From: an uncultured Chloroflexia bacterium
Lineage (GTDB): Bacteria; Chloroflexota; Limnocylindria; Limnocylindrales; CSP1-4
Assembly: GCA_963828165.1 (NCBI GenBank)
Contig: CAWHDR010000001.1
Location: 2,208,001-2,272,000 of the forward strand
Reading direction: 5' to 3'
Length of the DNA stretch: 64,000 nucleotides
Shown here: positions 26,886-59,515 of the stretch, in pieces
Layout: each line of letters starts with the position of its first letter
How positions within the stretch are numbered: position 1 is the first letter of the stretch
Translations under genes and position numbers: made by a program
Notes under the pieces: generated by a model
The model's database searches: none
What the model saw: only the letters and a program-made list of their open reading frames with translations
What the model was told of the DNA's origin: nothing

Positions 26886-27058
26886 GGAGCGCGCCGCCGC
26901 ACGCGCAGGGCATGGCGACAGGTGCGGTTGATGCCGGCGTGATCCTTCCCTGACCGTCTGAAACCTGTGCGTTTGCCCGAGTGCGCTATCGTGACCGTCC
27001 CGACAACCCAGGGCCGGGTCCTCCGGTGGTGCGCGGGACACTAGGCGAGGTCGATACC

Positions 27059-28027: not shown

Positions 28028-28050
28028 GGCCGGTCGCGGCACCAGGCGGC

Positions 28051-30804
28051 ATGCCCCTCGAGGAATACCGTCGCAAGCGCGACTTCGGCAAGACCCCGGA
28101 GCCGGCGCCGGCCGACCCCCCCGGCACGACCGGGCGGTTCGTCGTCCAGCGCCACCGCGCGACCCGGCTGCATTACGACTTCCGCCTCGAGATCGAGGGC
28201 GTGCTTGTGAGCTGGGCCGTCCCGAAGGGGCCCAGCCTCGACTGCAAGACCCGGCGCATGGCGATCCACGTCGAGGACCACCCGATCGAATACTTCGATT
28301 TCGAAGGGATCATCCCGGCGAAGCAATACGGTGCGGGCGACGTCATCGTCTGGGACTGGGGGACGTGGGAGCCGGAGGCGCCCACGCTCGATCCGGGGAA
28401 GGCGATCGACGACGGTGAGCTGAAGTTCCGGATCGCCGGCGAGAAGGTCAAGGGCCGGTTCACGATCGTCCGGACGAGCCGGCGTCCAGGCTCTGAGCCC
28501 ACGCGCGCTTTCGAGAAGGACGAGGGCGAGCAGTGGCTGCTCATCCACAAGTGCGACGAGCATTCCGAGCCCGGCTGGGACGCGGAGGACTACCCGAAGA
28601 GCGTCAAGACCGGCCGCACCAACGACGAGGTCAAGGCCCAGCGCGAGGCCATCTGGATCAGCGAATCGCCCGCCGCGACCGCGGAGATCGATCTGGCGGG
28701 TGCAAAGAAGGCATCGATGCCCAAGCACATCGAGCCGATGCTGGCCACGCTTGCGACCAAGCCGTTCGACGATGACGACTGGTTATTCGAGATCAAGTGG
28801 GACGGCTTCCGCGTCCAGGCGGTCGTTGACGATGGCAAGGTCAAGATCTGGACGCGCAGCCTCAAGGACGCGGAGATGTACTTCCCGAACCTGCTGAGCC
28901 CGCCACGCTGGATCGAGGCGAAGCAGGCGATCGTCGACGGGGAGGTGGTCGCGCTCGACGAGGCAGGCCGGCCGGACTTCAGCCTGCTGCAGACCAAGCT
29001 TGGGAACAAGACCGGCAGCGGGCTGGTGTACCAGCCGTTCGACCTGCTGTACCTCGACGGACGCTCGCTGCTGCAGGTCCCCCTCGAGGATCGCAAGCGG
29101 CTGCTCCGGAGCGTGCTGAATGAGCATCCGCGGGTGCGCTACGCCGCCCATGTCGAACGCGAGGGCAAGGCGTTCTTCGCGGCGGCCGAGGCGAATGGGC
29201 TCGAGGGCATCATCGCCAAGCTGCGCCGCTCGCCGTACGAACCGGGCAAGCGCACACCGGCCTGGCTCAAGTTCAAGATCCGCCCAGAGCAGGAGCTCGT
29301 GGTGGGTGGCTGGACCCCGGGGAGCGGCAACGCCAAGGACCTCGGTGCCGTGGCGGTCGGCGTGTACGACGGTGCCAAGCTACGGTTCGCCGGGAAAGTC
29401 GGGAGCGGCTTCACGGCCGGGATCCGGCGCGAGCTCCTGGATCGTCTCAAGCCGCTGGCCCAGGACGAACCTGCCGTTCGATCCGCCGCCGCCCAAGGAC
29501 TACAAGGGTCGTTGGGGCGGGGAGCTCAACGACGTCACGTGGGTCCGGCCGGAGCTCGTGATCCGGGCCGAGCTCGGAGGCTGGACGCGTGATGGCGTCG
29601 TCCGCCAGGCCGCCTACAAGGGTATCGAGCCCGGGCGCGACCCGAAGACCGTCGTTCATGAAACCCCGGTCAGTACGACCAGCGCGGTCCGTGCCGCCGA
29701 ATCGGAGGTGCCACCCATGCCCGAGTCGAAGACGAAGTCAGCGGGTCGTCCACGGGTGGCGCGACGTCGAAATCGTCATCGAACACGACATCGAAGTCGA
29801 AGAAGGCGGCCGGTGGCGCCTCGGGTCGTGTCGCCTCCCCGTTCCATGGCGCCACGCCCGAGGAGCTCGCGGCCCTCGATGCCCTCGACAAGGAAGGTGT
29901 CTGGCGGATCGATGGCCGCGACCTGAAGGTCACCAACCTCGACAAGGCGCTGTTCAAGCCGCGCCCACCGGACGACGACCCGATCACCAAGCGCGAGCTG
30001 ATCCGCTTCTACGCCACGATCGCGCCGACGATCCTGCCGCACCTCAAGGACCGGCCGCTCAACCTGAATCGATTTCCGAACGGTCCAGAAGGGCCCAGTT
30101 TCTGGCAGAAGAACATCAAGGAAACCGACCCGAAGTGGCTGACCCGCTGGCACGAAACCGGTGTCGACGGTCGCACCGACCGCGACGCCAACGACCACCT
30201 CATCGCCGACGGGCCCGCCGCCCTGGCGTGGCTGGCGAACCAGGCGAGCTTCGAGATCCATGCCTGGACCGGAAAACTGCCCGATCCGTGGCAGCCGGCC
30301 TTCGCCTACATCGACATCGATCCGGGCGAGAAGACCACGTGGGACGACACGCTGGTCCTCGCGCGGCTGTACCGCGCCGCGCTCGAACACCTCGGCGTCC
30401 GCGGCTACCCCAAGACCACCGGCAAGCGCGGCATCCAGATCTGGATCCCGATCGAGCCCAAGTACGACTTCCATGAGACGAGCTCCTGGGTGGAGCGCGT
30501 CAGCCGGGCGGTCGGCTCGACGGTCCCGGATCTGATCTCCTGGGAATGGTCGACGAAGAACCGCGGGGGCAAGGCCCGACTCGACTACACGCAGAACGCG
30601 AGCATCAAGACGCTCGTGGCGCCCTATTCCGTGCGCCCGGCCGCCGGTGCCCCGGTATCGACGCCGATCAGCTGGGACGAGCTCGACGACCCCGACATCC
30701 GCCCCGACCGCTGGACGATCCGCGACCTGCCCGCCCGCGTCGCGAAGGTCGGCGACCTGTTCGCGGCCGCGCAGACCGACCTGCAGGAACTGCCACCGGT
30801 CTGA
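28051..30804 (+). CDS. ligD: DNA ligase D (phosphoesterase-ligase-polymerase) with two apparent compensating frameshifts (~29470, ~29745)
   Basis: YRRKRDFGKTPEP and HYDFRLE (PE); EIKWDGFR, EGIIAK (ligase); TNLDK, KTTGKRG, LDYTQN (polymerase); frames 1 to 2 to 1. Confidence 0.88.
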
Positions 30805-33740: not shown

Positions 33741-35633
33741 CTAATCGTCGCTCGTGGGGGACTCAGCAGGCGTCGGCTCCGACGACGGCAAGGACGGGGG
33801 CGGAGAGGCGATCACTCCGAAGGACTCGGTCGTCGCGCCCGTGGCGGCGGGGACCTCGACTGGCGTCTCCACCGGGCTGACGGCCGGGGCCGCATCCTTG
33901 CCCACGGTCACCCGGATGATCGGCGGTTCGACGCCGCGCGCCGTCAGCGATCCAGCCTCCGGCGTGAGGATGTCCAGGATCAGCAGGTAGTCACCCGCGA
34001 CACTCGGGGCGAACAGCCGAAGGTTGGGCCTGGCGACCGCTCCTGGCTTGAAGCCAGCCGGCAGCTCGGCGGAGGTGACTGAGGCAGCGTTTGCTGCGTC
34101 TTCCTGCGCCGGGTCATCCAACGGACCCAAGGCGACCCACGTGCCAGTCATCCGGGCGCTCTCGCCGGGCACGCTGCCCTCCGGATCCCGAGGATCGTCG
34201 AAGGCGACATGACCCCAGGTCTGCCGTCCGAGATTGGCGACGGGGACCTGCAGGTCCACGGCGGCGCCCGGCGCGAGGGCGAGCAAGGCCGGGGCGTCGA
34301 AGCCGGCGTCGAGGTCACCCGTCACCCGGAAGATGAGCGAGGGGACCTGGGCCTGGGTCACGGGGTCGTAGGCCACGCCGTCTTCGTCGTGCAGCGTCAC
34401 CGTCAAGCGGTACCGCCCGGGCGCGGTCGGCGTGGCCACGTGGACCGCCATCTGCCCTCGGCCGATCTTCAGGGTCGCGGGCGCGATGACGTCGCCGATC
34501 CGCTCCGGGGTGATGAGTCCGAAGTCCGGTGTCACGACCTCAGGGACGGGCCGGTCCGCCTCCGGGGAAGGGTCGCCGAGATCGACGGCGGGCTGGATCA
34601 GGTCCCAGCGAGCGCTGGCCTGGAGCTTCTTGGGCAGCTTGTCGCGATCATCGATCTTGAATGGGATCCGGTAGTTGATCCTGCCACCCGCGACGGTGGA
34701 GCCCTGGAAGCTGGGGACGCCGATCGCGATGCCGCTGCCGGCCAGGGTCGGGACGAGCGCCGCAGCGTCCGCCGGTGTCTGGGCCGCCGCAGCACTCAGT
34801 GCGCTGCCGCGAGCGTTGCGCAGCACGTCGGCCGAGGCGAGCCCCTTCTTCAGGACGATCGACCGCGAGAACCCGGAGTTGCTCCGCTCGGGATCCATCT
34901 GCGCCACGTAGCCGTTGCTGCGTGAGCTCTCGAACGCGAAGGCGTTGTGGTTGGCGGTCGGCGCTCCGCGCCAGGCCGCCTCGATCGAGCGCTGCCCGGC
35001 CAGCACGGTCCGGACCATGTGATTCGGGCTGGCGTAGGCCTCCGCGATGACGGCTGCGGCGCCGGCCTTGATGAAGCCGGCCGCGAAGTTGTCGACCCGC
35101 TGGCGGGCCATGGCCAGGGTGCCCTCGGCGACCCCCGGCTCGCTGTTGCCAGACGCGTAGCACAGGTGGTTCAGGAGCACGACCGCGTTCTTGGCGAGAC
35201 GGACGTCAGAGGCGATCGGCCCCTCCCCGAAGTACTGATGCGTGGCGTCGTTGCCGCCGGGGCTCGGGTTCAGCCCGAAACCGTTCTGTGTCGGCGGGTA
35301 GAGGCTGTCGCGGTACTGGCTCGGCCAGCCGTTGCCGTGGCCCATGTAGATGACGAGGCTGGCACCCTGCAGTGCCTTCCGGACCGCCGGCCACGTGGCG
35401 TTGGGCGAATAGATCTCCGTGACGTCCGGGGTGTACTGGCGGGCGAGCCGCGCGGCCGCGCGTGCCTCCGTGCGATACCGGGTCGTGGCCGCGCCCGACG
35501 GTCCGACCACCACGACGACCCTGGGGACGGCCCGGCCCTGAGCCGGGGCGGCCGCTGCCACGGGCGCGATGAAGCTCGCGACGAGCAGCGATGCAAGGAC
35601 GGCGATGAGGGCGCGTCTCACAACAGGCGGCAC
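33741..35633 (-). CDS. Secreted hypothetical protein with caspase/gingipain-like N-terminal domain and Ig-like C-terminal domains
   Basis: Signal peptide; VIYMGHGNG and LNHLCYASG suggest a His-Cys dyad. Confidence 0.6.
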
Positions 35634-40071: not shown

Positions 40072-41760
40072 ATGCTCCTCGTGTTCGGACCCCGCTCCGC
40101 CGACTTCGACTTCGGGCCTGGTCACCCGCTGACGCCGCGGCGTTTCGGACCGGGGATCGATCTGCTGCGCGCCCTGGGGGCAGAACCGGGGATCGCACCG
40201 GAGCCGGCCGCCGACGAGGAGCTGTTGTGGTGCCACACCCAGCGGTACCTGGACGCGGTCAGGCGGTTCTCTGTCGACCCGTTCGGGTTCCCGGAGGCCG
40301 GCATCGGCGAAGGTGGCGACTGCCCGCCGTTCGCGGGCATGCACGAAGCATCGGCGGCGGTGGCCGGTGGGTCGCTACGGGCGGTCGAGGCGATCCTGCG
40401 CGGGGACGTGGAACACGCGCAGCACCCGGGTGGCGGCCTGCATCACGCGATGCCGGCGCGGGCGTCGGGGTTCTGCATCTACGACGACCCGGCCCTCGCG
40501 ATCGCCCGCGCGCGACGAGACGGGCTGCGGGTGATGTACATCGACCTGGACGTGCATCACGGCGATGGGGTGCAGGCCATCCATTGGGACGATCCTGGCG
40601 TGCTCACGGTCTCCTTCCACGAGACGGGTCGGGCTTTGTTCCCTGGGACCGGCGACGTCGACGAGGTGGGGGAGGGCGTCGCGGCTGGGACCAGCGTCAA
40701 CGTGCCCCTTCCACCCGGGACCGGCGAGCGGGCGTGGCTCGCGGCCGTCGAGCTCCTGCTCCCCGAGCTGGCGGCCACGTTCGCGCCCGACCTCATCGTG
40801 TCCCAGCACGGCGCCGATTCGCACGCCTGGGATCCGCTCGCCCACCTGAACGTGACCACGACCGCCCACGGCGCGGCGGCGCGCCTCGTGGACACGTTGG
40901 CGCACCGGCATGCCGGGGGCCGCTGGCTCGCCACGGGCGGTGGCGGATACGACGCGTACCGCGTGGTGCCGCGGACCTGGGCCCTGACCTGGCTTGCCGG
41001 GGCGCATCGCGAGATCCCGGAGGCGACACCCGTCGCCTGGCGCGAGCGATGGGCGACCGAGGCGGCACGGTACGGGCAGGCGCCGCTCCCCGAGGGGTTC
41101 GACGACGAGCCCAATGCCGGGCTCGAGTTCGACGCCGCGCAGGCGGCCGTGGAGGAGGTGGCGAGCGGGGTCGCGGCGCTCGTCCGGCGCGTGCTGGTGC
41201 CGCGGCTCGTGCACGTCGGCCACGACCGCGGATGGTGGGATCCGCTCGCGCCTTCCCACGGGACCATGTCGGGAGCGGGGCCCGTTAGCGGGACGCCGAC
41301 GATCCTCCCCGAGATCGACGCCGCGACCTGGTCGGGCCTGTCGCTGGCGCCAAGGGTCATCGCGCCGGCGGATCCGAGGGCTGCCCACGGACTCGTCCTG
41401 GCTGGCCTCGCCGACGGCGCCCGGGTCACCGTCGCGGTGATCGGACCGCGGGTCGTCGGGCTCGCGATCTCCCGGGTCGATGGCGAGTCCGAAGAGCTCC
41501 TGGCCCTCGGCGTAGAGCCCTCGCATCGTCGTCACGGCCTGGCCGGCAAGCTCCTCGAGGCGCACTCGGCCGCCGATCGCGCGAGCACCGCAGAGGTCGC
41601 CCTGGCCGAGCGCGACGTCGTCGACCCGCTGGATCGTGCGGACCGCGCGTCGATCGCCCGCCGGCTGCTTGAACGGGCCGGCTACCGCGTGGTGTCGGCC
41701 GCCGGGGCGATCCGATCGGTGGATCCATCCGCGATCGTGGCCGGGCGGGGGCCGGCGTGA
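40072..41760 (+). CDS. acuC: AcuC-like zinc-dependent deacetylase fused to a C-terminal GNAT-like domain
   Basis: GPGHPL, GGLHHA, SGFCIY, DLDVHHGDG, GADSH, GGGGY; C-terminal LGVEPSHRRHGLA acetyl-CoA motif A. Confidence 0.85.
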   Translation: MLLVFGPRSADFDFGPGHPLTPRRFGPGIDLLRALGAEPGIAPEPAADEELLWCHTQRYLDAVRRFSVDPFGFPEAGIGEGGDCPPFAGMHEASAAVAGGSLRAVEAILRGDVEHAQHPGGGLHHAMPARASGFCIYDDPALAIARARRDGLRVMYIDLDVHHGDGVQAIHWDDPGVLTVSFHETGRALFPGTGDVDEVGEGVAAGTSVNVPLPPGTGERAWLAAVELLLPELAATFAPDLIVSQHGADSHAWDPLAHLNVTTTAHGAAARLVDTLAHRHAGGRWLATGGGGYDAYRVVPRTWALTWLAGAHREIPEATPVAWRERWATEAARYGQAPLPEGFDDEPNAGLEFDAAQAAVEEVASGVAALVRRVLVPRLVHVGHDRGWWDPLAPSHGTMSGAGPVSGTPTILPEIDAATWSGLSLAPRVIAPADPRAAHGLVLAGLADGARVTVAVIGPRVVGLAISRVDGESEELLALGVEPSHRRHGLAGKLLEAHSAADRASTAEVALAERDVVDPLDRADRASIARRLLERAGYRVVSAAGAIRSVDPSAIVAGRGPA

Positions 41761-42449
41761 CCGGCACCGGCGCACCAGAGGGCTTGCCCTCACGTGACCT
41801 CGTCGATGTACGGCTGGCCGCCGCGATCGAGCTCGGCGGCTGCGCTGTTTGCGCCGTCCGGGCCCGCTCGGAACGCGCGACGCTGGACGCGATCATCGCG
41901 GAGCGCGTGCTCGATATCGGCTTTCGGGAGGGACTCGAGCGCGAACATGGGTTCTGCCGCCGCCATTCGGCCGAGCTGCTCGAAGCCAATCGACAGGCGT
42001 CGGGCAGCCTCGGTTCGTCGATCCTGTTCGGGGCGATCGTCGAACGACGCGCCGCCGCGCTCCAAGCGGCGATCGGCACCCGGGGTCGGAGCCGTCGTCA
42101 GCGGCTCGCCGAAGCCGGTCGACGACCACCGTGCATCGCCTGCGGCCAGGGCGTCTCGGGTGTCGACATCGCGCTCGCCCGGCTGGTCCAGCGGAGCGCG
42201 GACCCGGCCTGGGCCTCGGCCATGCTCGAGATCCCGTTCTGCCTCGACGATCTGACGGCCTTGCTGGCCGCCGCCGGTGACGAGGCGTCGTTCGCCCCGA
42301 TCGCCGCCCATCACCTCTCCCGGCTCGACGACCTGCGTCGCCGGCTCGGTGGCTTCGTGGATCATTCCGCCCAGGACCGCCGACACCTGCTGACGGATGA
42401 GGAACGATCGGCGGCAGACGAGGCCGCGCGGCTGCTCGCGGGCGATTGA
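41757..42449 (+). CDS. Hypothetical protein with duplicated CxxC/FC motifs (DUF6062-like)
   Basis: CAVC, GFCRRH, CIAC, FCLDD; GTGA-coupled to acuC. Confidence 0.7.
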   Translation: MTGTGAPEGLPSRDLVDVRLAAAIELGGCAVCAVRARSERATLDAIIAERVLDIGFREGLEREHGFCRRHSAELLEANRQASGSLGSSILFGAIVERRAAALQAAIGTRGRSRRQRLAEAGRRPPCIACGQGVSGVDIALARLVQRSADPAWASAMLEIPFCLDDLTALLAAAGDEASFAPIAAHHLSRLDDLRRRLGGFVDHSAQDRRHLLTDEERSAADEAARLLAGD

Positions 42450-42614
42450 TGCAGTTCGTTCACCGGGGACCAGGCCGACGAGCCGTCGTCCGCCGGAAGA
42501 TCGATGCCGCCTTCGGTCGGGCCGGCAGGCCGGCCCCCCGACGGCCAAGTCAGCCGTTGAACCTTGACCCAGGATGCCGACCCGTAGCCGCGCCGTCGAG
42601 CTATCGGGGCGTGA

Positions 42615-42773
42615 TTTAGCGTGAGTGAACGAATGCACCGGCAAGCCTCTTTGTTGCCGCTGCACGCGTCTCCTCGCGTCATGATCTTCGCTCACGGTGA
42701 ACGCCCGCCGGCGTGACATCTCGGCAGGGACGACCTTATGGCGCATCCCTGGCGAGTGTTCAGTGCCAGTGAA
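42615..42773. repeat. Three-box palindromic array, family 2, downstream flank of paralog 2
   Basis: TTTAGCGTGAGTGAA (42615), TTCGCTCACGGTGAA (42687), TTCAGTGCCAGTGAA (42759); spacings 72 and 72. Confidence 0.8.
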
Positions 42774-42818
42774 TCTCGAAGAGGAAGCCGGAAGCCTCGA
42801 ACCGACTACGGGTGCCAG

Positions 42819-43571
42819 TCACCGACCGAAGGCCACGCCTCGCGGAGGTCGATCGAGCAGCGTCACCACGTCGCCTTCGGCCCTCGCCCATAGGACACCT
42901 GGTCCCGGCCATGGACCATGCCCACAGACCGCCTCAAACACATCCCTGGCGCGGGCGGGATAGAGCGCCTGGAAGGTTTCCGGAAATCGATGGGCCAGAT
43001 CCCGAGTGGTCCGCGTCGACCGAAGAACAAGCAGTCGACTGACCTCCGCGCCGGATGGCGCATTCGACCACAGGGCCGCCGACGGCAGCGACGACGCCTT
43101 GTCCTGTGCCCATCGGAAGTGCTGCTCGAGGCGGCGGATCTCCGAGCTCACCTCTGTTGCCAGGAAGAGCGGCTCGGCGTGATCCCTGAGGACGATGTCG
43201 ATGTAGCCGCGGGCGGGTCGCGTGACCGGGACTTCCACGAATGTTCGCCAGCGAGGTCGGACCGCTCGCAGGATGTGCTCGACGATCTGGCTCTGGATCC
43301 GATCATGGATCCGGGGACCTGTGTTCGGGTATGCCCTCAGCGACAGGTCGGCGCCGAGGACATCGGCGATCCCAACCAGGACCGTCGTGCTCGCCTCCGA
43401 AGAACCTTGTTCGATTCCGCACAGGTGGCCCGGACTGATCCCGACCGATCTCGCCACCGCCGCCTGCGTCAGTGCCGCATCCTCGCGAAGTCGTCGAAAC
43501 TCCCCGCCGATCGACGCTCTGACCTGCCGTGTCCGCGCGCGCCGCCGCCGCTCGTCCTCTCGTGCACTCAA
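42819..43571 (-). CDS. XRE-family HTH fused to PD-(D/E)XK/DUF559-like putative nuclease domain (paralog 2)
   Basis: FRRLREDAALTQAAVARSVGISPGHLCGIE HTH; RAYP.GP.I.D..Q-type linker shared with paralog 1; EVP...YID...EVS; start TTG 43571 or ATG 43604. Confidence 0.75.
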   Translation of the reverse strand: MSAREDERRRRARTRQVRASIGGEFRRLREDAALTQAAVARSVGISPGHLCGIEQGSSEASTTVLVGIADVLGADLSLRAYPNTGPRIHDRIQSQIVEHILRAVRPRWRTFVEVPVTRPARGYIDIVLRDHAEPLFLATEVSSEIRRLEQHFRWAQDKASSLPSAALWSNAPSGAEVSRLLVLRSTRTTRDLAHRFPETFQALYPARARDVFEAVCGHGPWPGPGVLWARAEGDVVTLLDRPPRGVAFGR

Positions 43572-43608
43572 GGCGGAACTCCATCCTGCAAGGCGGAACT
43601 CCATCCTG
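43569..43608. repeat. 20-bp tandem duplication over the start region of paralog 2
   Basis: CAAGGCGGAACTCCATCCTG x2. Confidence 0.9.
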
Positions 43609-43619
43609 CCGGCGGCCGA

Positions 43620-43996
43620 TTTAGGGCCAGTGAACCAAATCTCGCTCTACCGGCGCTTATCACGCCGAGGGACCGACAGATGCAGCGCTGTCGCCACGAC
43701 GTTCACTGGCGGTGAACCCTGACGCGCCAAACTCGGGTGGTTCGGGGCCGAGCGCGGTTTGGGCCCGATCGCGTTCGCTGTCAGTGAATCCCGTCTCGGG
43801 ACGGGCTCACCGATCTGGCATAGCCCCCCGGACGTTCACTGGCGGTGAACCCTGACGCGCCAGGCTCGGGTGGTTCGGGGCAGAGCGCGGTTTGGGCCCG
43901 ATCGCGTTCGCTGTCAGTGAATCCCGTCTCGGGACGGGCTCACCGATTTGGCCTAGCCGCCCGTCTCGGGACGCGCTCACCGATCTGGCGTAGCCG
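43620..43996. repeat. Family-2 box array with 133-bp tandem duplication, upstream flank of paralog 2
   Basis: Boxes at 43620, 43702, 43774, 43835, 43907 (spacings 82, 72, 61, 72); 43698-43826 repeated from 43831, partial third copy at 43960. Confidence 0.88.
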
Positions 43997-44069
43997 GCCC
44001 GGCTCGTTGTTGGTGGCACAAATAGAACGGACGATCGAAACGCGCACGCAGGCCTATACTCTCGAGTCC

Positions 44070-47000
44070 GTGGCCACGACCCTCGTCGCCGATCCGCTCG
44101 CGCCGTTCTCGCCGGCCGTTCGCGCCTGGTTCGAGGCGAGTTTCGAGGCGCCCACCCAGGCCCAGACGGAGGGATGGGCAGCCATCGCGCGAGGCGAGCA
44201 CACGCTCATCCACGCACCCACGGGGAGCGGCAAGACACTGGCCGCCTTCCTGTACACGCTCGACCGTCTCGCCCAGCATCCGAGCCCGCCGGTCCAGAAA
44301 GGCCAGACCGGCAACGTCCGGGTTCTCTACATCTCGCCGCTCAAGGCTCTGACGTACGACGTGGAGCGCAACCTGCGGGCCCCGCTCACGGGGATCGGCC
44401 TCGCGGCGCAGCGACTCGGCGAAGCACCTCCAAGCATCTCCGTCGCCAGCCGCACCGGCGACACCCCGGCCGAAGACCGCCGCGAGATCGCCCGACGCCC
44501 GCCCGACATCCTCATCACGACCCCGGAGAGCCTGTACCTGCTCCTGACCAGCCAGGCGCGCGAGATCCTCCGTGGCGTCGAACACGTCATCGTCGACGAG
44601 ATCCACGCGATGGCCGGCACGAAACGGGGTGCCCACCTTGCCCTGAGCCTGGAACGGCTTGAGGCGCTCCGTCCCGAGGGCGCAGAGCCGCCACAGCGCA
44701 TCGGCCTGTCGGCCACCCAGCGGCCGCTGGACGCGATCGCCCGCTTCCTCGGTGGCATCGGGCCGGATCGCGAGGTCACGATCGTCGATGCAGGCGCCCG
44801 GAAGCCGCTCGACCTGCAGGTCGTCGTACCGGTCGACGACATGAGCGCCATCGGCGATGTCCTGCCGCAGGAGCAGCAGCCCGGCGGGCCGGCGATCAGT
44901 CCGGACCTGCGCACGAGCATCTGGCCGGCGATCCACCCGCGGATCCTCGAGCTGATCCGCAGCCACAAGAGCACGATCGTGTTCACGAACAGCCGGCGCC
45001 TCAGCGAGCGTCTGGCCCAGCGCCTCAACGAGCTCGCCGGGGAGGAGCTCGTGCGTGCCCACCACGGCAGCATCGCTCGTGAACAGCGGCTCGAGATCGA
45101 GGAGGAGCTGAAGGCCGGCCGCCTCCCGGCCCTCGTCGCCACGAGCTCGAGCCTCGAGCTCGGCATCGACATGGGCGCCGTCGATCTCGTCATCCAGGTC
45201 GAGAGCCCGACGAGCGTGGCCCGTGGCCTCCAGCGGGTCGGTCGGGCTGGTCACCAGGTCGGCGCGCCCAGCAAGGGCGTCATCTTCCCGAAGTACCGCG
45301 GCGACCTGCTCGAGGTCGCGGTGGTCACCAGACGGATGCACGAGGGCGCGATCGAGGCCACGAAGATCCCGCGGAATCCGCTCGATGTCCTCGCTCAGCA
45401 GCTCGTGGCGATGACCGTGATGGACCGCTGGACGGGTGAGGACCTGCTCCGCACCATCACGAGAGCGGCGCCCTACGAGACGCTCACGCGCGATGTCCTC
45501 GACGGTGTCCTTGGCATGCTCGCGGGCGCCTACCCATCGGACGAGTTCGCGGAACTCAAGCCGCGCATGGTGTGGGACCGCGTCACCGACACGATCGAGG
45601 GCCGCCGCGACGCGCGCGTCGTCGCCGTCACGAGCGGCGGCACGATCCCCGATCGCGGCCTCTTTGGCGTGTTCATGGAAGGCGAGGCCGGCACGCCCGG
45701 CCGCCGCGTGGGCGAGCTCGACGAGGAGATGGTCTACGAGCTTCGCGCCGGGATGCACGGTGACGTCATCGTGCTCGGGGCGAGCAGCTGGCGCGTCCTC
45801 GAGATCGGTCATGACCGGGTCACCGTCAGCCCGGCTCCCGGCGTCCCCGGCAAGCTGCCGTTCTGGAAGGGCGACGCCGTGGGCCGGCCGATCGAATTGG
45901 GCCGGGCGCTCGGGGCGTTCGTCGGCGAGATGGAGACCAACCTTGGGCGTGGCGCCAAGGGCCGGCGCGATGCCACCAAGCGACTGCGGGAGCATCACGA
46001 CCTCGACGAACGGGCTGCCGAGAACCTTGTCGCCTACCTGGAGGACGAGCGAGAGGCCACGGGCGCCCTCCCCACGGACAAGCGAGTGGTGGTGGAGCGG
46101 TTCCGCGACGAGCTGGGCGACTGGCGGCTGACGCTCCTGACGCCGTTCGGTGGGCGAGTCCATGCGCCGTGGTCCCTGGCCATCGAGTCCCGTCTCCAGG
46201 AACGGCTCGGGATGGAGGTCCAGACCATCTGGTCCGACGACGGGATCGCGATCCGGATGCCGGAAGGTGAGGCCAGCCTCGACGGGGTCGAGGAGCTGCT
46301 GTTCCCCGCCGCGGAGGATGTCGAGGACCTCGTGGTCGGGCAGGTCGCCAACTCCGCGCTCTTCGCGAGCCGCTTCCGGGAGAACGCGGCCCGGGCGCTC
46401 CTCCTGCCGCGGCGCCGGCCCGGTACCCGGACGCCGCTCTGGCAGCAGCGCCAGCGCGCGGCAGACCTGCTGGCCGTCGCCAGCCGTTATGGCAGCTTCC
46501 CGATCCTGGTCGAGACGTACCGCGAGTGCCTGTCCGACGTGTTCGACCTCGACGCGCTGCGCGAGATCCTCGGTGGCATCTCGAGCCGTGAGATCGCCGT
46601 GCACGGTGTCGAGACGCCGAAGGCGAGCCCGTTCGCGAGCAGCCTGCTGTTCGACTACGTGGCGGCCTACATGTACGACGGCGACACGCCATTGGCCGAG
46701 CGGCGGGCCGGCGCCCTCACCCTGGACCGCGACTTGCTGCGTGAGCTGCTCGGCCAGGAGGAGCTCCGGGAGCTGCTCGACCCCGATGCCCTCGGCGACC
46801 TCGAGCTGTCGCTGCAGGCGCTCGTCGAGGACCGGGCCGCCACGACGCTCGACCAGGTCCACGACCTGCTGCGCCGCCTGGGGGACCTGTCCGCCGACGA
46901 AGTGAGTGCCCGGACCGCGGGCGGTGCCCCCGTCGCCGTTCCGTGGCTGGCGGAGCTGGAAGCGGCCCGCCGTGCTGTCCGTGTCCGCATCGCGGGCGAC

Positions 47001-48633
47001 GAGCGCTGGATCGCGATCGAAGATGTCGCTCGCTACCGAGACGGTGTGGGCGTCACGGCGCCGGTCGGGGTGCCGGCCGCGTTCCTGGGTCCGGCGGCAG
47101 GCGCGCTCGATGGGCTGCTGGCGCGCTTTGCGCGGACCCACGGCCCGTTCCTGACCCCCGACCCGGCGCGCCGCTGGGGCTTGCCTGCCGGTATCGTCGG
47201 CGACGCCCTGGAGCGCCTCCTGGCCAACGGTTCGCTGCTCCTCGGTGAGTTTCGGCCGGGTGGAGCGGAACGGGAGTGGTGCGATCCCGGATGTCCTGCG
47301 ATTGCTGCGCCGCCGCTCCCTCGCGCGCCTGCGACGCGAGGTGGAGCCGGTCGATCCGGCCGCGCTGGGCCGCTTCCTCCCGGCGTGGCATGGCGTGGCG
47401 CCGGTCGGCGGCCCGGGCGCGGACGCATCGCCATTCCGCGGTTCCGCTGCGCTCGAGCGCCTCGCGGAGGTCGTCGATCAGCTCGCCGGCGTTGCCATCC
47501 CGGCGTCCGTGCTGGAACGCGACGTGCTGCCGGCCCGCGTGCCCGGCTACCAGCCGCGTCTGCTCGACGAGCTCGGCGCGATGGGCGAGGTCGGCTGGGT
47601 GGGGCGGGGGAGCCTCGGCCGCGACGACGGTCGGATCGCGCTGTTCCGCCCCGGTCGCGATGCTCTGCGTCCGATCACGCCGCCGGATGGCGCGGAGCGG
47701 CCGGAGAGCGAGCGCCACGATCTGATCCGCGAGCACCTCGGCCGCCGGGGCGCGAGCTTCTATCGCGAGATCCATGCCGCGGCCGGCGGCGGCTCGGACC
47801 GGGCGATGCTCGATGCGCTGTGGGACCTCGTCTGGGTCGGCGAAGTCACGAACGACACGTTCGCGCCGCTCCGGGCCCTACGCTGGAAGCGCCCCACCGG
47901 CGGCAACGGGGCGCGGCCGCGACCGGGTCGCCTGACCGCGCTCGGTCCACCCGAGGCGGCGGGACGATGGTCGCTCGTGGAACCCGCGACGGAGCTGACT
48001 GCGACGGAACGCCTCCATGCGCAGGCCCTCGCGTTACTGGAACGCTATGGCGTGCTGACCCGCGAGGCCGTCGCCAGTGAAGGAGTCGATGGCGGGTTCG
48101 CCGGCGTCTACCCCGTCCTCCGCGCGCTCGAGGACGCCGGGCGGATCCGGCGGGGCTACTTCGTCGACGGCCTCGGTGCCGCGCAGTTCGCACTGGCGGG
48201 CGCGCTCGATCGACTGCGGGCCGTCCGCGAACCGGCCGACCGTCCGGCGGAGGGGTCGGTCCACCTGCTGGCCGCTGCCGACCCGGCGAACGCGTACGGT
48301 GCGGCCCTGCCGTGGCCCCGCCGGGGCGAGGCCGACCGGCGCCCCCTCCAGCGGGCGGCCGGAGCCTACGTCGTCCTTGTGGACGGAGTCGCGGCGCTGT
48401 ACCTGGAGCGCGGTGGCTCCACGCTGCAGACCCTGGCCCCCGCCGACGATCCGGCCGTCGCCGATGCTGCGATCCGCGGCCTCGGCGCGCTCGTCGGGAC
48501 GGGCCGGGCGCGCGAGCTCGTGATCCGCAAGGTCGACGGCCTGCCCGTCGCCGACGCTCCGTTCCGCGACCAGTTGCTCGCATCGGGCTTCAGCGCCGGC
48601 TACCGCGGCCTGGTCATGCGCGGCGCCCGATAA
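44070..48633 (+). CDS. lhr: Lhr family ATP-dependent helicase (apparent frameshift ~47288)
   Basis: APTGSGKT, DEIH, SAT, HHGS, LELGIDMG, QRVGRAGH; C-terminal IRRGYFVDGLGAAQFA; TATACT-N9-GTG. Confidence 0.92.
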
Positions 48634-48649
48634 CCGCGAGCGACCTCCG

Positions 48650-49477
48650 ATGCCCGAAGGCGACACGCTCTTCCGCACCGCCGCCGGTCTGCGGCCGTAC
48701 CTCGTGGGACGGGACGTGCTGGCCGCGCGCGCCCAGGGTCCCGGCGCCATCCCGCAGGTCCAACGGATCGTCGGCAAGCGCATCGATGCGGTCGAATCGC
48801 AGGGCAAGAACCTCCTGATCCGGTTCGACGGCGGCCTGCAGATCAGGACCCACCTCCGGATGAACGGCTCATGGCACCGCTACCGACCCGGCGAGCGCTG
48901 GCGTCGGCCGCCCGGCCGCGCCCGGCTCGTGCTGGAGGTCGACGGTGCGGTCGCGGTCTGTTTCGATGCCCCGGTGATCGAGCTGTTCGAGACGCGGAGC
49001 GAGCCATTCCATCCGTCCCTCTCGCGTCTGGGACCGGACCTCCTCGCCCCCGACTTCGATGCGGCCGAGGCCCACCGCCGGCTGCGCGCGCCCGAGCGGG
49101 CCGACCTGGAGATCGGCGTCGCGCTTCTCGACCAGCGGGCGCTGGCCGGCATCGGCAACGTCTACAAGAACGAGGTCCTGTGGATCGAGCGCGTCGCGCC
49201 GTTCGCCTCCGTCGCGACGCTCGACGACGCCACGCTCGAGCGGCTCGTCGCCACCGCCCGCCGCCTGATGCGCGCGAACGTCGACGCGCGGCGCGGACCG
49301 GAGCGCGTGACGACGGCCGGTGATCGAGGCGCCCCGGGCTCGCTGTACGTCTACGGCCGCACGGGACGTCCCTGCCGCCGCTGCGGGACCGCGATCGCCG
49401 TCGCCCGTCAGGGCACCGACCTACCACGCACGACCTACTGGTGCCCGAGGTGCCAGGGACCTGGAGCCGACACATGA
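48650..49477 (+). CDS. nei: Fpg/Nei family DNA glycosylase
   Basis: N-terminal PEG, GKNL, HLRMNG, LLDQRALAGIGNVY, C4 zinc finger. Confidence 0.93.
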   Translation: MPEGDTLFRTAAGLRPYLVGRDVLAARAQGPGAIPQVQRIVGKRIDAVESQGKNLLIRFDGGLQIRTHLRMNGSWHRYRPGERWRRPPGRARLVLEVDGAVAVCFDAPVIELFETRSEPFHPSLSRLGPDLLAPDFDAAEAHRRLRAPERADLEIGVALLDQRALAGIGNVYKNEVLWIERVAPFASVATLDDATLERLVATARRLMRANVDARRGPERVTTAGDRGAPGSLYVYGRTGRPCRRCGTAIAVARQGTDLPRTTYWCPRCQGPGADT

Positions 49478-55371: not shown

Positions 55372-56208
55372 GTGACCGAGGGATCCGTCATCATCATCGG
55401 CGGCGCGGAGGACAAGGTCCGCGACCGCGTCATCCTGAGCCGCTTCGCCACGCTCGCCGGTGGGCGTGACGCGAACGTCGTCGTGATCTCGACCGCTTCC
55501 TCGATGGGCGTGGAGGCCGGGGCCCGGTACAAGCAGGTCCTCGGCGAGCTCGGCGTGACCAAGGTCCGGACGATCCACGCGATCACGAGGGCCCAGGCGA
55601 ACGACGAGAAAGCGGCCCACGCCATCCGCACGGCGACCGGCATCTTCCTGACCGGGGGCAACCAGCTCCGGCTCTCGTCGACGATCGGCGGGACCCGGCT
55701 CGCGGACGCGGTGCTGGACCAGTTCCGCCAGGGGGCCGTGGTCGCGGGCACGAGCGCGGGCGCCAGCGCCCTGTCGAGCCACATGATCGCCTTCGGGGCA
55801 TCGGGGGCCACGCCGAAACATCGCATGGCCCAGATCGCGGCCGGGCTCGGCGTGCTCCCGGGCGTCATCGTCGATCAGCACTTCCAGCAGCGGAACCGAC
55901 TCGGGCGATTGCTCAGCCTCATCGCCCAGAACCCCAGCCTCCTCGGCCTCGGCGTCGACGAGGACACGGCCGGAGTCGTCGGTGTCGACCACGTCATGGA
56001 GGTCATCGGGCGTGGCTCCATCACGGTCGTGGACGGCGCCCGCTCGGAGACCGATGCCTGGGAGGTGAAAGGCCACCGCCCGCTCATGATCAGCGGCGTC
56101 GTGCTGCACTCCCTGCCGGCCGGCTACCGCTTCGACCTTCGTCGTCGGGAGCGCATCGTCGCTCCGGCGCTCCACGCGCTCCCCGGCGGCGAGGCCGCGT
56201 CGAGCTAG
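55372..56208 (+). CDS. cphB: Cyanophycinase
   Basis: IIGGAEDK, TGGNQLRL, GTSAGA (catalytic Ser), DQHFQQRNRLGRL, GVDEDT; AAGGAG RBS. Confidence 0.95.
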   Translation: MTEGSVIIIGGAEDKVRDRVILSRFATLAGGRDANVVVISTASSMGVEAGARYKQVLGELGVTKVRTIHAITRAQANDEKAAHAIRTATGIFLTGGNQLRLSSTIGGTRLADAVLDQFRQGAVVAGTSAGASALSSHMIAFGASGATPKHRMAQIAAGLGVLPGVIVDQHFQQRNRLGRLLSLIAQNPSLLGLGVDEDTAGVVGVDHVMEVIGRGSITVVDGARSETDAWEVKGHRPLMISGVVLHSLPAGYRFDLRRRERIVAPALHALPGGEAASS

Positions 56209-56280: not shown

Positions 56281-59142
56281 GTGACCGAGACCGCGGAACC
56301 GACGACGACACGCGCACGCCGGCCACGGTCCAAGTCCGCGTCCACGACCTCCGCGGCCACGCCGCTGCCCACGTTGCGCATCCTCGAGACCCGCGTCCTG
56401 CGCGGGCCCAATTATTGGGCGCGCGAGCCCGTCATCCGCCTGCTCGTCGATCTCGGGGTCCTGGAGGACTTCCCGTCCGACAAGCTCCCGGGCTTCACCG
56501 ATGCGCTCGTCGCGCTTCTGCCGACGCTCGAGGACCATGCCTGCTCGCTTGGCCGGCGCGGCGGCTTCATCACGCGACTCCGTGACGGCACCTGGGCCGG
56601 GCACATCGCCGAGCACATCGCGCTCGAATTCCAGAATCTCGCCGGCACCGACGTCCGCCACGGCAAGACCCGCTCCGCCGGGCCGCGGGGCCAGTACAAC
56701 TGCATCTACGAATACCGCGAGGAGGCCGTCGGCCTCGAGGCGGGCCGGATGGCCGTGGCCCTCGTCAACCACCTCGTGGCCCCGGACGATCCCGAGGTCT
56801 TCTTCGACTTCGCGCCGCAGCTCGAGGCGCTGATCCGGCTGGCCGAGCGCCAGGCGTTCGGTCCGTCGACGCAGGCGCTCATCGACGAAGCCGTGAGCCG
56901 CGACATCCCGTTCATCCGGCTGGACCGTCACTCGCTCGTCCAGTTCGGTCACGGGGTCCACCAGCAGCGCATCCGCGCGACGATGACGTCCAAGACCTCG
57001 GCGATCGGCGTCGACGTGGCGTCGGACAAGAGCCTGACCAATCGGCTGCTCGACTCGGCTGGTCTTCCGGTGCCGCGCGCCGATGTCGTGGAGACGGAGG
57101 ACGCGGCGGTCGCCGCGGCGAAGCGGATCGGCTTCCCGTGCGTGCTCAAGCCCCTTGACGGCAATCACGGCAGGGGCGTCCACCTGGACCTGCGTTCCGA
57201 GGAGGCCGTGCGAGCCGCCTTCCCGGGCGCGCTGGGTCAGAGCCGGACGGGTGTGGTCGTCGTCGAGAGCTACGTCACGGGCAACGACTATCGCTGCCTG
57301 GTGATCGGCGGCAAGGTCGCGGCCATCGCCGAGCGCGTGCCGGCCAGCGTCACCGGCGATGGCGAGCACACCGTTCGGCAGCTGGTCGACATCGCGAACG
57401 CCGATCCACGCCGGGGCATCGGCCACGAGAAGGTCCTGACCCGGATCAAGGTCGATGATGCCGCGATCGAGCTCGTCCGCGCCCAGGGTCACGCATTCGA
57501 CGACGTCCCACCCGCGGGCACCTGGATCAAGCTCGCGCTGACCGGCAACATGTCGACCGGCGGGACGTCCATCGACCGGACGATCGAGGCGCACCCCGAC
57601 AACGTCGAGATCGCCGAGACCGCGGCCGGCATCGTCGGACTCGACGTCGCCGGCATCGACTTCATCTGCCCGGACATCGCGACCCCGGTCCGCGAGACGG
57701 GCGGAGCGATCGTCGAGGTCAACGCGGCCCCAGGGTTCCGGATGCACACCCACCCGACCGAGGGCGAGCCCCAGTACGTGGCCCGGCCCGTCATCGATGG
57801 GCTCTTCCCGCCCGGACAGCCGGCGCGCATCCCGATCGTCAGCGTGACCGGCACGAACGGCAAGACCACCACGGTCCGGATGATCAGCCACATCCTCAAG
57901 CTGATGGGCCGGCGGGTCGGGATGACATCGACCGACGGCATCGTCATCGACGGGCGATTGATCAAGAAGGGCGACATGTCGGGCCCGAAGTCGGCCCTCA
58001 TGGTCCTCCAGAACCCGACCGTGGACACCGCGGTGTTCGAGGTCGCGCGCGGTGGGATCCTGCGCGAAGGCCTGGGCTACGACCGCAACGACGTGGCCGT
58101 GGTGACCAACGTGACCGGCGACCACCTTGGTCTGGGTGGGATCAACTCGCTCGGCCAGCTGGCCAACGTCAAGGGCGTGGTCGTGGAGGCGGTACCCCGC
58201 TCCGGTACGGCCGTGCTGAACGCCGACGACAGCCACGTCTACCGGATGGGTCGCCACTGCGCCGGACGGGTCGTGCTGTTCAGCATGGCCACCAAGAAGG
58301 GCGAGGACGGCTTCGACCGCATCGACGGCCACACGAGCCGTGGCAATCCCGCGTTCTGCCTCGAACCGAGCGCCGAGGGAGAGTTGATCGTGTTGCGCCT
58401 CGGCAGCCGCAAGATGCCAGTCCTCTACACGCACCTGATCCCGGCGACGTTCGGGGGACGGGCGCGGATGAATGTGGCGAACGCGCTGGCCGCTGCGGCC
58501 GCGGCGTGGGCCACGGGAGCGCACCTGCACGACATCCGTCAGGGGCTGCGGACCTTCACGACGTCGTTCTTCCAGGCGCCGGGTCGCCTCAATCTGCTCG
58601 ATGTCGGTGGGGTGCGGGTCGTGATCGACTACTGCCATAACGTCGATGGCATGCGCCAGCTCGCGGATTTCGTCGAGCGGATGATGGTCGAGCCGCAGAC
58701 CAAAGCCGGACGGATCGGCTCATCGGCGCCGGCCGCGCGGTCAGGTCGGGCGATCGGCGTCCTCGGCATCCCGGGCGACCGCCGGGACGAGGATCAGCGC
58801 GAGTACGGTGCGATCGCGGCGGGTGCCTTCGACGAGATCATCGTGCGCGAGGACAAGAACCTGCGCGGCCGGGCGCCGGGTGAGACCGCGACGAACGTGA
58901 TCGAGGGCGTGCGTAGCGCCAAGACGGCCGGGAACTCGCGGACGACCCGGGCCGACAAGGTCCTCGAGGAGATGACCGCGGTCCGCACGGCGCTCCGCCG
59001 AGCGATCCCCGGCGATCTCGTCGTGTGCTGCGTGGACGATGCGATCGGTGTCTACCGCGAGGCGATGGCCGCCGCGGGCGCATCACGCGCCGGCGGGATG
59101 GCGTTCGCGGATCCGGGCGAGCTCGAGGCGCCCGAGGGGTAG
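56281..59142 (+). CDS. cphA: Cyanophycin synthetase
   Basis: N-domain LRGPNYW, HACS...GHIAEH; ATP-grasp KPLDGNHGRGV, EVNAAPG; Mur-ligase TGTNGKTT, DYCHN. Confidence 0.96.
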   Translation: MTETAEPTTTRARRPRSKSASTTSAATPLPTLRILETRVLRGPNYWAREPVIRLLVDLGVLEDFPSDKLPGFTDALVALLPTLEDHACSLGRRGGFITRLRDGTWAGHIAEHIALEFQNLAGTDVRHGKTRSAGPRGQYNCIYEYREEAVGLEAGRMAVALVNHLVAPDDPEVFFDFAPQLEALIRLAERQAFGPSTQALIDEAVSRDIPFIRLDRHSLVQFGHGVHQQRIRATMTSKTSAIGVDVASDKSLTNRLLDSAGLPVPRADVVETEDAAVAAAKRIGFPCVLKPLDGNHGRGVHLDLRSEEAVRAAFPGALGQSRTGVVVVESYVTGNDYRCLVIGGKVAAIAERVPASVTGDGEHTVRQLVDIANADPRRGIGHEKVLTRIKVDDAAIELVRAQGHAFDDVPPAGTWIKLALTGNMSTGGTSIDRTIEAHPDNVEIAETAAGIVGLDVAGIDFICPDIATPVRETGGAIVEVNAAPGFRMHTHPTEGEPQYVARPVIDGLFPPGQPARIPIVSVTGTNGKTTTVRMISHILKLMGRRVGMTSTDGIVIDGRLIKKGDMSGPKSALMVLQNPTVDTAVFEVARGGILREGLGYDRNDVAVVTNVTGDHLGLGGINSLGQLANVKGVVVEAVPRSGTAVLNADDSHVYRMGRHCAGRVVLFSMATKKGEDGFDRIDGHTSRGNPAFCLEPSAEGELIVLRLGSRKMPVLYTHLIPATFGGRARMNVANALAAAAAAWATGAHLHDIRQGLRTFTTSFFQAPGRLNLLDVGGVRVVIDYCHNVDGMRQLADFVERMMVEPQTKAGRIGSSAPAARSGRAIGVLGIPGDRRDEDQREYGAIAAGAFDEIIVREDKNLRGRAPGETATNVIEGVRSAKTAGNSRTTRADKVLEEMTAVRTALRRAIPGDLVVCCVDDAIGVYREAMAAAGASRAGGMAFADPGELEAPEG

Positions 59143-59144
59143 GG

Positions 59145-59240
59145 TCAGGCTCGCCCCATGTTCGCCTGCACCGTGCGGATGATGAAGACGATCTCCAGGG
59201 CGGCGATCACGATCAGCGCGATGCCGACGAACATCTCCAC
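59145..59240 (-). CDS. 31-aa single-TM small protein (MEMFVGIALIVIAALEIVFIIRTVQANMGRA)
   Basis: GGAGG RBS upstream of GTG, hydrophobic helix, GC3-rich codons; not in the supplied ORF track. Confidence 0.6.
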   Translation of the reverse strand: MEMFVGIALIVIAALEIVFIIRTVQANMGRA

Positions 59241-59321
59241 GGGTAGCCCTCCGCTGGGGCCGGCCAGGACCTCCGACCGATCCCGCGCGCATCATGCGCC
59301 CTGCCGGCGAGCGACCGCAAA

Positions 59322-59470: not shown

Positions 59471-59515
59471 GAACTGGGGTCCCCGCGCTCGGATTGATCT
59501 TGCGGCGAACCCGGC

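Follow-up and report, generated by a model that had tools for sequence, protein, structure and literature searches.

A 64,000-nucleotide stretch of DNA from an uncultured Chloroflexia bacterium (contig CAWHDR010000001.1, positions 2,208,001-2,272,000), hereafter referred to as the window, contains a gene (42819-43571, minus strand) that encodes an XRE-family helix-turn-helix (HTH) protein with a nuclease-like C-terminal domain. The gene is bracketed by two arrays of a 15-bp palindrome, which we call the box. Inspection of the window and of homologous loci in related genomes demonstrates a family-wide, specificity-matched association of this protein with helically phased palindrome arrays. Different homologs are accompanied by different palindromes, the box covaries with residues of the recognition helix, and the distances between boxes follow the helical repeat of DNA.

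The box, TTCRC-N5-GTGAA, forms four arrays in the window, of which two bracket the XRE gene and two are orphan arrays located 24 kb and 16 kb away from it. The upstream array (43620-43921), between the divergent lhr and XRE genes, is composed of five boxes at 43620, 43702, 43774, 43835, and 43907 with spacings of 82, 72, 61, and 72 bp. Its gene-nearest box (43620-43634) is 49 bp from the TTG start codon. The downstream array (42615-42773) has three boxes at 42615, 42687, and 42759, spaced by 72 and 72 bp, and is located between the convergent XRE (-) and DUF6062 (41757-42449, +) genes. Orphan array A (19090-19258) has boxes at 19090, 19172, and 19244 with spacings of 82 and 72 bp, and its first box is 12 bp upstream of the ATG of an amidohydrolase gene (17675-19078, -). 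Orphan array D (59322-59470), between two convergent cyanophycin-synthetase-like genes, has boxes at 59322, 59394, and 59456 with spacings of 72 and 62 bp. An original prediction had described a selfish repeat system here; all of its box positions are borne out, including the gene-free triplets at 19090 and 59322, and so are the restricted spacing and the placement of one array between convergent genes.

The boxes are far more frequent than expected by chance. The pattern TTYRSNNNNNGTGAA has 13 matches in the window, corresponding to 11 distinct sites because two perfect palindromes are counted on both strands, versus a mean of 0.18 and a maximum of 2 in 100 shuffled windows. With up to two mismatches, TTCAC-N5-GTGAA has 16 window matches, and 14 of them fall within the four clusters. 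The sequences between the boxes differ, as had been claimed: comparison of the ten spacers in 45 pairs gave no sign of relation (z from -1.4 to 2.1) save in the tandem-duplicate pair C2/C22 (z = 27). Boxes 4 and 5 of the upstream array stem from a 133-bp tandem duplication (43698-43963; 2.0 copies, 95% matches), which preserves the phasing because 133 equals 72 plus 61. Of the 21 intergenic segments in the window that are 120 bp or longer, four hold TTCAC-type arrays, and none holds a convincing array built on a different box. The intergenic scan returned one further in-phase chain, made of unrelated degenerate boxes (55975-56098); the anti-phase control gave three chains. The hairpins that the boxes can form are weak, with energies of -1.0 to -4.5 kcal/mol, and do not surpass those of shuffled sequences (z from -1.9 to 0.08). 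Rfam gave no match anywhere in the window at gathering thresholds, hence the arrays are no known RNA.

We then inspected the homologs. A species-level genome collection contains 145 confirmed relatives, and 79 loci were examined, with 20 kb of each genome. Boxes were assigned to 40 loci by inspection of motif-search outputs, which together with the window gives 41 sequences. The box searches were background-normalized and anti-phase-controlled; raw counts were swamped by GC-rich words, and lenient chains by coding periodicity. Arrays are present at about 45 genes among the 79 loci, i.e. the 40 with assigned boxes and four or five more. The TTCAC box, at up to one mismatch, has 24 matches in the 79 loci, 19 of which are beside the gene in L001, L002, L003, L022, and L026, the closest homologs. 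Other homologs have arrays of other 5-N5-5 palindromes, with arms ATCGC, TTCGC, TTGCC, ATGCC, GTGCC, TTGGC, and CTGGC, among others, and further ATTGC, GTGAC, TTGAC, CTGAC, and TGGAC. The expectation that homologs would be flanked by arrays is thereby supported, with TTCAC beside the closest homologs and different palindromes beside the others. An array consists of 3-7 boxes. It is located upstream of the gene, and in about a third to half of the assigned-box loci also downstream. For the 11 loci whose downstream array lies in a gap of at least 200 bp, the context is convergent in seven and tandem in four. In agreement with the earlier suggestion, downstream arrays are not simple operators of the next gene, as they often lie between convergent genes. 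Several metagenome-assembled genomes (MAGs) hold two to four family loci each, and two paralogs are within 10 kb (L024 719-1408; L029 8107-8805). Avoidance of cross-talk among paralogs could be behind the divergence of the boxes.

The arrays of the homologs obey a common rule of spacing. The distances between similar palindromes in the gene flanks peak at 62 bp (30 pairs), 72-73 bp (23), 81-83 bp (15), 51-52 bp (11), and 41-42 bp (11), while the histogram outside the flanks displays coding periodicity alone and that of shuffled sequences is flat. A box-blind search for in-phase chains of at least three boxes found 20 near the gene and 6 far from it, versus 0 near and 1 far in anti-phase; this strict detector undercounts, because it recovered only one of the four window arrays. 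When the assigned boxes of the 41 sequences were used, in-phase clusters of at least three boxes amounted to 35 near the gene and 7 far from it, and the anti-phase control had none near and 2 far. Successive spacings of 16-110 bp number 119, and 95 of them coincide with one of 15 in-phase values, although the pairs lack independence and the count includes tandem duplicates. The best period is 10.35 bp with R = 0.80 and zero offset, and the commonest spacings of 62, 72, or 83 bp correspond to 6, 7, or 8 helical turns. Arrays grow by tandem duplication, the unit being 133 bp long in the window and 62 bp in L028. In L023, five boxes are placed at 62-bp intervals with no detectable tandem repeat, which indicates that the spacing is kept as the sequence drifts.

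The HTH probably reads the boxes, as had been proposed, since the palindromes differ from homolog to homolog and position 3 of the box covaries with residue 46 of the protein. Counted without correction for phylogeny, a C at position 3 is accompanied by S or A at residue 46 in 12 of 12 cases, and a G by S or A in 1 of 30 and by D, H, or N in 29 of 30. Among boxes with G at position 3, residue 52 follows position 4: all 7 boxes with G there are paired with Q52 and all 8 with C are paired with R52, again uncorrected for phylogeny. An A at position 4 is found with L (8) or R (6) at residue 52.

Comparison of genomes with conserved flanks reveals that the gene and both arrays form a variable cassette (42446-44019). 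Blastn homology of the window to L077 and L006 ends at 44020 and resumes at 42445-42455. Specifically, the L077 flanks share 88.6% identity with the window along 9.7 kb on one side and 90.2% along 1.2 kb on the other, with the cassette unaligned; despite these close flanks, the L077 protein has just 54% identity and is accompanied by ATCGC-N5-GCGAT boxes. L006 exhibits the same loss of homology across the cassette. Conversely, L001 has more divergent flanks (83%), yet its protein is 82% identical and the TTCAC box is shared. When 27 lhr-linked sequences are compared, the XRE-nuclease-like proteins are 51-82% identical in pairs whose Lhr identity is 95% or more. The box type also switches between genomes with 96-98% identical Lhr; for example, L009 and L013 (Lhr 96%) have ATTGC and TTGGC boxes, respectively. 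Judged from these alignments, protein and boxes evolve as one matched cassette, and specificity switches between close relatives.

The conserved neighbor of the cassette (44020-49477, +) comprises the lhr promoter, the lhr helicase gene from about 44070, which is split between two frames, and nei (48650-49477), encoding an Fpg/Nei glycosylase according to Pfam. In 36 of the 79 loci, lhr lies within 2.2 kb upstream on the opposite strand, usually followed by nei. In the loci examined, no partner gene recurs next to those family members that are not beside lhr. The lhr promoter (44025-44065), just outside the cassette, is conserved and has a TATACT -10-like element preceded by a TAGAAC-N6-TCGAAA motif. 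This motif also occurs in L001 (~9690-9740) and, inverted, in L003 (~9650-9700), and may be the site of a separate lhr-nei regulator. Downstream of the XRE gene in the window are the convergent DUF6062 gene and then a deacetylase-GNAT gene, and a deacetylase/DUF6062 block is the commonest downstream neighbor across the loci. In L001 (10750-19750), and likewise in L006, L049, and L077, the XRE gene and DUF6062 are separated by about 9 kb absent from the window. The segment encodes, in L001 and L006, dihydroxyacetone kinase (DhaK/L), a glycerol facilitator, HPr, EIIA, enzyme I, and a PAS-histidine kinase. The window lhr consists of two overlapping open reading frames (ORFs) in different frames, 43845-48080 and 47245-48633, and lhr of relatives is one ORF of ~1520-1560 residues; the split reflects either a frameshift (pseudogene) or an assembly error.

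The XRE gene product has 250 residues when translated from TTG at 43571 (stop codon included in 42819-43571). The ORF extends from 42819 to an ATG at 43604, which would give 261 residues. Most of the 120 homologs listed have 250 residues, so the TTG start fits, as in the gene coordinates of the original prediction, and a GGAG is located 7 nt ahead of it. The in-frame upstream ATG is due to a perfect 20-bp tandem duplication (43569-43609) covering the ribosome-binding site and the start region. The GC content at third codon positions (GC3) of the gene is 0.73, compared with 0.80-0.92 for the 34 genes called in the window. The protein is composed of an arginine-rich N-terminal helix, the XRE HTH (residues ~20-76, nt 43344-43514), a linker (residues 76-88) of low model confidence, and the C-terminal domain (residues 86-250, nt 42822-43316). 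The HTH scores 46.1 bits against Pfam HTH_31 (cutoff 27) and 31.9 bits against HTH_3 (cutoff 23), which assigns it to the XRE family, and at E up to 1 HTH families are the only Pfam matches of the protein. Foldseek matches the HTH to HipB, ClgR, and C.AhdI with TMt of 0.63-0.84. Its nearest solved relative is ClgR (E = 6.5e-12 in a PDB sequence-profile search; structures 3f51 and 3f52 in Foldseek). PADLOC matches are confined to the HTH, namely HTH_VI (2.2e-07) and weak matches to RmrA and control proteins.

In the AlphaFold2 model, the predicted local distance difference test score (pLDDT) is 86.5 for the full protein and 93.4 for the C-terminal domain, whose predicted template-modeling (TM) score (pTM) is 0.89. 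The modeled C-terminal domain has the secondary-structure order H-E-E-E-H-...-E; the core of restriction-endonuclease-like folds is alpha-beta-beta-beta-alpha-beta. Its Foldseek matches are almost exclusively PD-(D/E)XK nucleases at weak scores (E from 5e-4 to 0.1, TM 0.3-0.5), which lends tentative support to the restriction-like domain of the original prediction. The top 35 PDB fold matches are all PD-(D/E)XK nucleases (E from 3e-3 to 0.1). The best of them is the NucS repair endonuclease 2vld (E = 3e-3), and the matches include NucS/EndoMS (2vld, 5gke), McrC, the R2 restriction-like domain, SduA, Bax1, SfsA, NucC, Hjc, and XisH. The named fold matches in a viral library are restriction endonucleases, MmcB-like repair proteins, and Cas4. 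Across 80 sequences, D90, E113, G122, D125, E140, E149, K158, and P205 are invariant. The canonical lysine position, residue 142, is occupied by Q (39), H (31), E (6), S (2), N (1), and D (1), and the D...(D/E)-x-K motif is thus incomplete. Some restriction enzymes carry Q or E at this position, so the domain may nonetheless be active. The C-terminal domain is thus predicted to have a nuclease-like fold, and its invariant residues indicate strong constraint.

At the sequence level the C-terminal domain matched nothing in Pfam, NCBIfam, PHROGs, PADLOC, or PDB sequences, where the HTH part alone matches, and tblastn of the domain against plasmid and phage collections gave no match. In the ESM Atlas it retrieved unnamed or HTH-bearing Chloroflexota clusters and nothing else. 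A phmmer search with the domain found 330 cluster representatives at E up to 1e-3 among 1.84 billion proteins. Among the best 150 of these 330, the domain starts at residue ~85-95 of a ~250-residue protein in every full-length match, and the remaining matches are mostly shorter proteins or fragments. By these searches, the C-terminal domain constitutes a separate sequence family. The whole protein may represent a sequence-specific DNA-binding family restricted to Limnocylindrales-like Chloroflexota, in which a flexible linker connects a ClgR-like HTH to a C-terminal domain of PD-(D/E)XK fold, a description that in our estimate is about as likely to stand as to be revised.

Orphan arrays are not confined to the window. 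Those of the resident box type occur twice in the window, twice in L008, and in L009, L033, L036, and L064, and L078 has one of the ATGCC type. They are all intergenic, in convergent, tandem, and divergent contexts alike. Two of them are seen as insertions relative to empty sites in close relatives. The L009 insertion, of ~255 bp with three cognate boxes (spacings 73 and ~72 bp), is placed exactly between the lhr stop and the nei start; the same site spans 0-17 bp in L013 (flanks 88-89% identical), L001, and L006. The L036 insertion, of ~272 bp with four boxes (52, 53, and 52 bp), is absent in L046 (flanks 91-92% identical) and L003. Arrays thus occur without the gene, as had been noted, and at these two sites they were gained as insertions. 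Neither insertion has a match beyond the boxes, and hence a donor, among all sequences compared (20 kb per genome); the longest match to a resident array is 25 nt. Terminal inverted repeats and clear target duplications were not found at either insertion; there is at most a 5-bp direct repeat, GCACG, at the L036 junction. Adjoining the L036 insertion site is a conserved non-coding block that ends in the T-arm-like GGTTCGATCC (window 35520-35620 on the minus strand, L036 19880-20000, also in L046 and L003) and is without Rfam match in the window.

A few features lie next to arrays. G-rich short tandem repeats with units of ~16-37 bp directly adjoin arrays in L001 (11010-11150), L003 (10845-10965), and the window (43923-44006). 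Just upstream of orphan array A is a 109-residue glycine-rich ORF (19307-19636, -) with GGGGDFGGG-type repeats and without Pfam match. Of the two genes around orphan array D (56281-62410), one is cyanophycin-synthetase-like and the other has Mur-ligase domains; ARAGORN calls a tRNA-Ser (61300-61390, -) within the second gene, where Rfam reports no tRNA.

The explanation that we favor, and that we consider to have an even chance of being right, is that dimers on phased boxes form a looped complex that autoregulates the gene, with diversifying specificity. HTH dimers would sit on each box, all on one face of the DNA. The conserved C-terminal domains would join neighboring dimers, and bending of the 47-68-bp spacers would yield a compact complex, looped or wrapped. 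Pairing of the upstream with the downstream array may span the ~1-kb gene, much as phage repressors bridge flanking operators. Such a complex would control expression of its own XRE gene and probably affect the divergent lhr-nei promoter, and it might also assemble at a few other intergenic sites. Arrays would grow by tandem duplication and reach new sites as 250-270-bp insertions. The strict helical phasing, together with the unrelated spacers and the weak hairpins, argues for selection on a bound complex, as copying alone would not yield phasing. Downstream arrays between convergent genes fit an auxiliary looping site better than a promoter operator. Several observations weigh against this explanation. 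No array was found with the detectors used at about 34 of the 79 loci, some of which have very short or N-masked flanks. A promoter/terminator scan of 42400-44150, uninformative as a whole, gave one terminator-like site and no promoter-like site. Loops of 62-83 bp are energetically costly. The neighbors of orphan arrays are unrelated to each other (amidohydrolase, cyanophycin synthetase, DoxX, heliorhodopsin, MMPL, thioredoxin-like protein), and arrays that sit beside such genes, between convergent genes, or inside the lhr-nei operon do not look like a regulon. It is also unusual for an ordinary regulator to switch specificity rapidly and to gain arrays by insertion. Finally, the conservation of acidic residues in a nuclease fold suggests catalysis or metal binding rather than mere bridging.

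An alternative, adjusted from the original prediction, is a selfish array system, in which the HTH-nuclease would spread arrays of its own sites by cutting or recombination as a non-HUH functional analogue of REPIN/RAYT. Cognate arrays bracket the gene in the window and in homologs, orphan arrays occupy 4 of the 21 window intergenic segments and are also present in L008, L009, L033, L036, L064, and L078, and their placement is blind to the direction of the flanking genes. Filled and empty sites are known in two cases, L009 and L036, the cassette with its low GC3 is exchanged between lineages, and the predicted PD-(D/E)XK fold keeps D125 and E140 invariant. However, the arrays are not copies of one another, and the L009 and L036 insertions resemble the resident arrays at the boxes alone; hairpins are weak, and there are no terminal inverted repeats or clear target duplications. 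The canonical lysine is replaced, the window has no transposase or integrase, the collections searched have no plasmid or phage homolog, and the strict phasing again implies selection on a bound complex. We therefore regard such a system as unlikely, and its corollary, that specificity turns over through site erosion or avoidance of cross-talk among co-resident systems, as improbable to a similar degree. In a variant that we deem unlikely, the arrays propagate themselves: the HTH-nuclease would seed and enlarge phased arrays of its own sites in intergenic DNA not occupied before, by cutting and repair-mediated insertion or duplication, with no fixed element transposed. If true, this would be a non-HUH, double-stranded-DNA-reading counterpart of REPIN/RAYT with Red-Queen-like joint turnover of specificity and arrays in an uncultured soil/freshwater lineage.

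The position beside lhr invites another explanation, namely a DNA-damage-responsive repressor of lhr-nei whose nuclease-derived domain senses damaged or single-stranded DNA, releases the arrays, and induces the operon; this is a specialized form of the looped autoregulatory complex. Its basis is that lhr lies on the opposite strand at most 2.2 kb upstream in 36 of 79 loci, usually then with nei, that arrays lie between the XRE gene and lhr, and that the top PDB fold match is NucS 2vld (E = 3e-3), with MmcB-like repair proteins among the viral-library matches. Since the conserved promoter and motif of lhr itself lie outside the cassette, about half of the family is away from lhr, and no repair gene adjoins any orphan array, we find it quite unlikely; nor does it need downstream or orphan arrays or a box switch at 96-98% Lhr identity. 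The arrays could also be architectural, as tight roadblocks that stop replication forks or transcription, insulate, or organize the chromosome. As in Tus/Ter and RTP/Ter, one set of sites would be at the protein's own gene and the others would be dispersed. Arrays here are intergenic, including positions between convergent genes and at 3' ends, several sites on the same face would block strongly, and the neighboring genes have no common function. Yet palindromic boxes lack polarity, the window GC skew is uninformative, most arrays are at the gene itself (35 near versus 7 far), and the L009 array is inside the lhr-nei operon, where a block would harm; this role is decidedly improbable. The link between box and protein is known here from sequence, which leaves some room for boxes of another factor or a chance motif that adjoin the gene by coincidence. 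At one and the same chromosomal site, however, a different protein comes with a different box type, box and recognition-helix residues covary, and the anti-phase controls are nearly empty, so we give coincidence hardly any credence.

Of the known systems, REP/REPIN repeats with their RAYT had been put forward as the model, RAYT being an HUH Y1 transposase. In the parts of the sources consulted, REPIN/RAYT is described as a single-copy chromosomal gene flanked by cognate short palindromic repeats that are also dispersed intergenically, with the repeat type matching the protein type and largely vertical inheritance (10.1101/2022.05.22.493013, PMC3337134). The analogy holds for the flanking cognate repeats and the dispersed arrays, as seen in the window and the loci examined. 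It fails for the copy-and-spread mechanism: REPINs are hairpin copies of a whole sequence, while only boxes and phasing are shared here and the spacers are unrelated. The enzyme here is an XRE HTH with a PD-(D/E)XK-like domain and no HUH match, its canonical lysine is absent, the hairpins are weak, and the site beside lhr is conserved in 36 of 79 loci. A REP/RAYT-type copy system was accordingly rejected on the non-HUH enzyme, the unrelated spacers, and the weak hairpins. A miniature inverted-repeat or other non-autonomous transposon was rejected as well, because clear terminal repeats are missing from the L009 and L036 insertions, which also have no copies beyond the boxes. CRISPR repeats are near-identical units of 21-48 bp with spacers of fixed length. 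The arrays are not CRISPR, because the boxes are degenerate 15-mers and spacer lengths step by ~10.35 bp; no cas domains are present among the Pfam-scanned window genes. A prophage immunity region was dismissed in view of the lack of prophage context and of any C-terminal-domain match in the phage collection.

ClgR, an actinobacterial XRE regulator of clp genes, is the best HTH match in both sequence and structure. Its consensus operator, as given in the part of the source consulted, is WNNWMGCYNNNRGCGWWS, with the same 5-N5-5 half-site geometry as ATCGC-N5-GCGAT or TTCGC-N5-GCGAA here (PMC2905415). The solved ClgR chains have 117-120 residues and no second domain, in contrast to the extra 165-residue domain here, and identity as a ClgR equivalog was rejected at 21.6 bits against a cutoff of 170 (NCBIfam NF041677). 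We know of no phased arrays for ClgR. The phage repressors lambda CI (OL/OR) and coliphage 186 CI (flanking sites) use multipartite operators and long-range looping. They resemble the present family in having an HTH with a C-terminal oligomerization domain, operators that flank a region, and repressor-operator cassettes between conserved flanks that define 'immunity types'. They differ in that the operators here are 6-8 turns apart instead of adjacent, the C-terminal fold is another, and orphan arrays occur in the chromosome. Repression by the looping lac repressor is periodic with the helical repeat and strong at ~70 bp; it shares the same-face steps of about one turn and shows that ~60-80-bp loops are feasible in vivo, though it belongs to another protein family and lacks the 3-7-site arrays and fast-changing specificity seen here. 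NucS/EndoMS and minimal RecB-like nucleases are the best fold matches of the C-terminal domain. The minimal RecB-like motif is D ... ExK ... QxxxY, and the spacing D125 ... E140-x-x ... Q150-x3-W154 resembles it; there is however no sequence-level relation, TM scores reach only 0.3-0.46 at E of 3e-3 or more, and the lysine position is Q, H, E, or S. The F plasmid sopC is built of 43-bp units in tandem, and an HTH protein binds the inverted repeat that each unit contains. Like sopC, the present arrays are inverted repeats in fixed helical register beside the gene of the binder, and specificity diversifies between systems; unlike sopC, they have no ParA-type ATPase neighbor, are chromosomal, and have spacers that are not conserved units. 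A partition centromere of ParB/SopB type was rejected, as no partner NTPase gene adjoins the XRE gene and the recurrent neighbors are lhr, nei, DUF6062, and deacetylase.

A literature search judged by titles and abstract openings, with many subscription papers outside its reach, returned no description of this protein-array architecture. Dozens of natural HTH-operator pairs are available in the family, and their code can be read directly: residue 46 corresponds to position 3 and residue 52 to position 4. With its strict 10.35-bp register, the family lends itself to studies of cooperative DNA looping and of how binding specificity evolves. Arrays are gained as discrete insertions, and a regulator cassette is swapped beside a conserved repair operon, which raises the question of how arrays arise and whether the nuclease-fold domain takes part. 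The host lineage, Limnocylindrales-like Chloroflexota, is known in the data set solely from MAGs.

The window itself, assigned to this lineage, has ~70% GC and the composition of an ordinary high-GC chromosome. The related contigs are from Chloroflexota/Limnocylindrales MAGs in 76 of 79 loci, the exceptions being L017, L060, and L065. No transposase, integrase, or phage genes are among the 35 window genes scanned with Pfam. GC skew along the window displays no switch and says nothing on the terminus. A Ku gene and a LigD primase-polymerase fragment (26981-30804) suggest that the organism has non-homologous end joining, which bears on the possible origin of array insertions. Two other repeats are present in the window: a 54-bp tandem repeat of 4.8 copies (23836-24097; also reported by Tandem Repeats Finder as a 110-bp unit of 2.4 copies) in the gap between two called genes, and a 174-bp repeat of 2.2 copies (26474-26862) within the gene for a subtilase with SLH domain.

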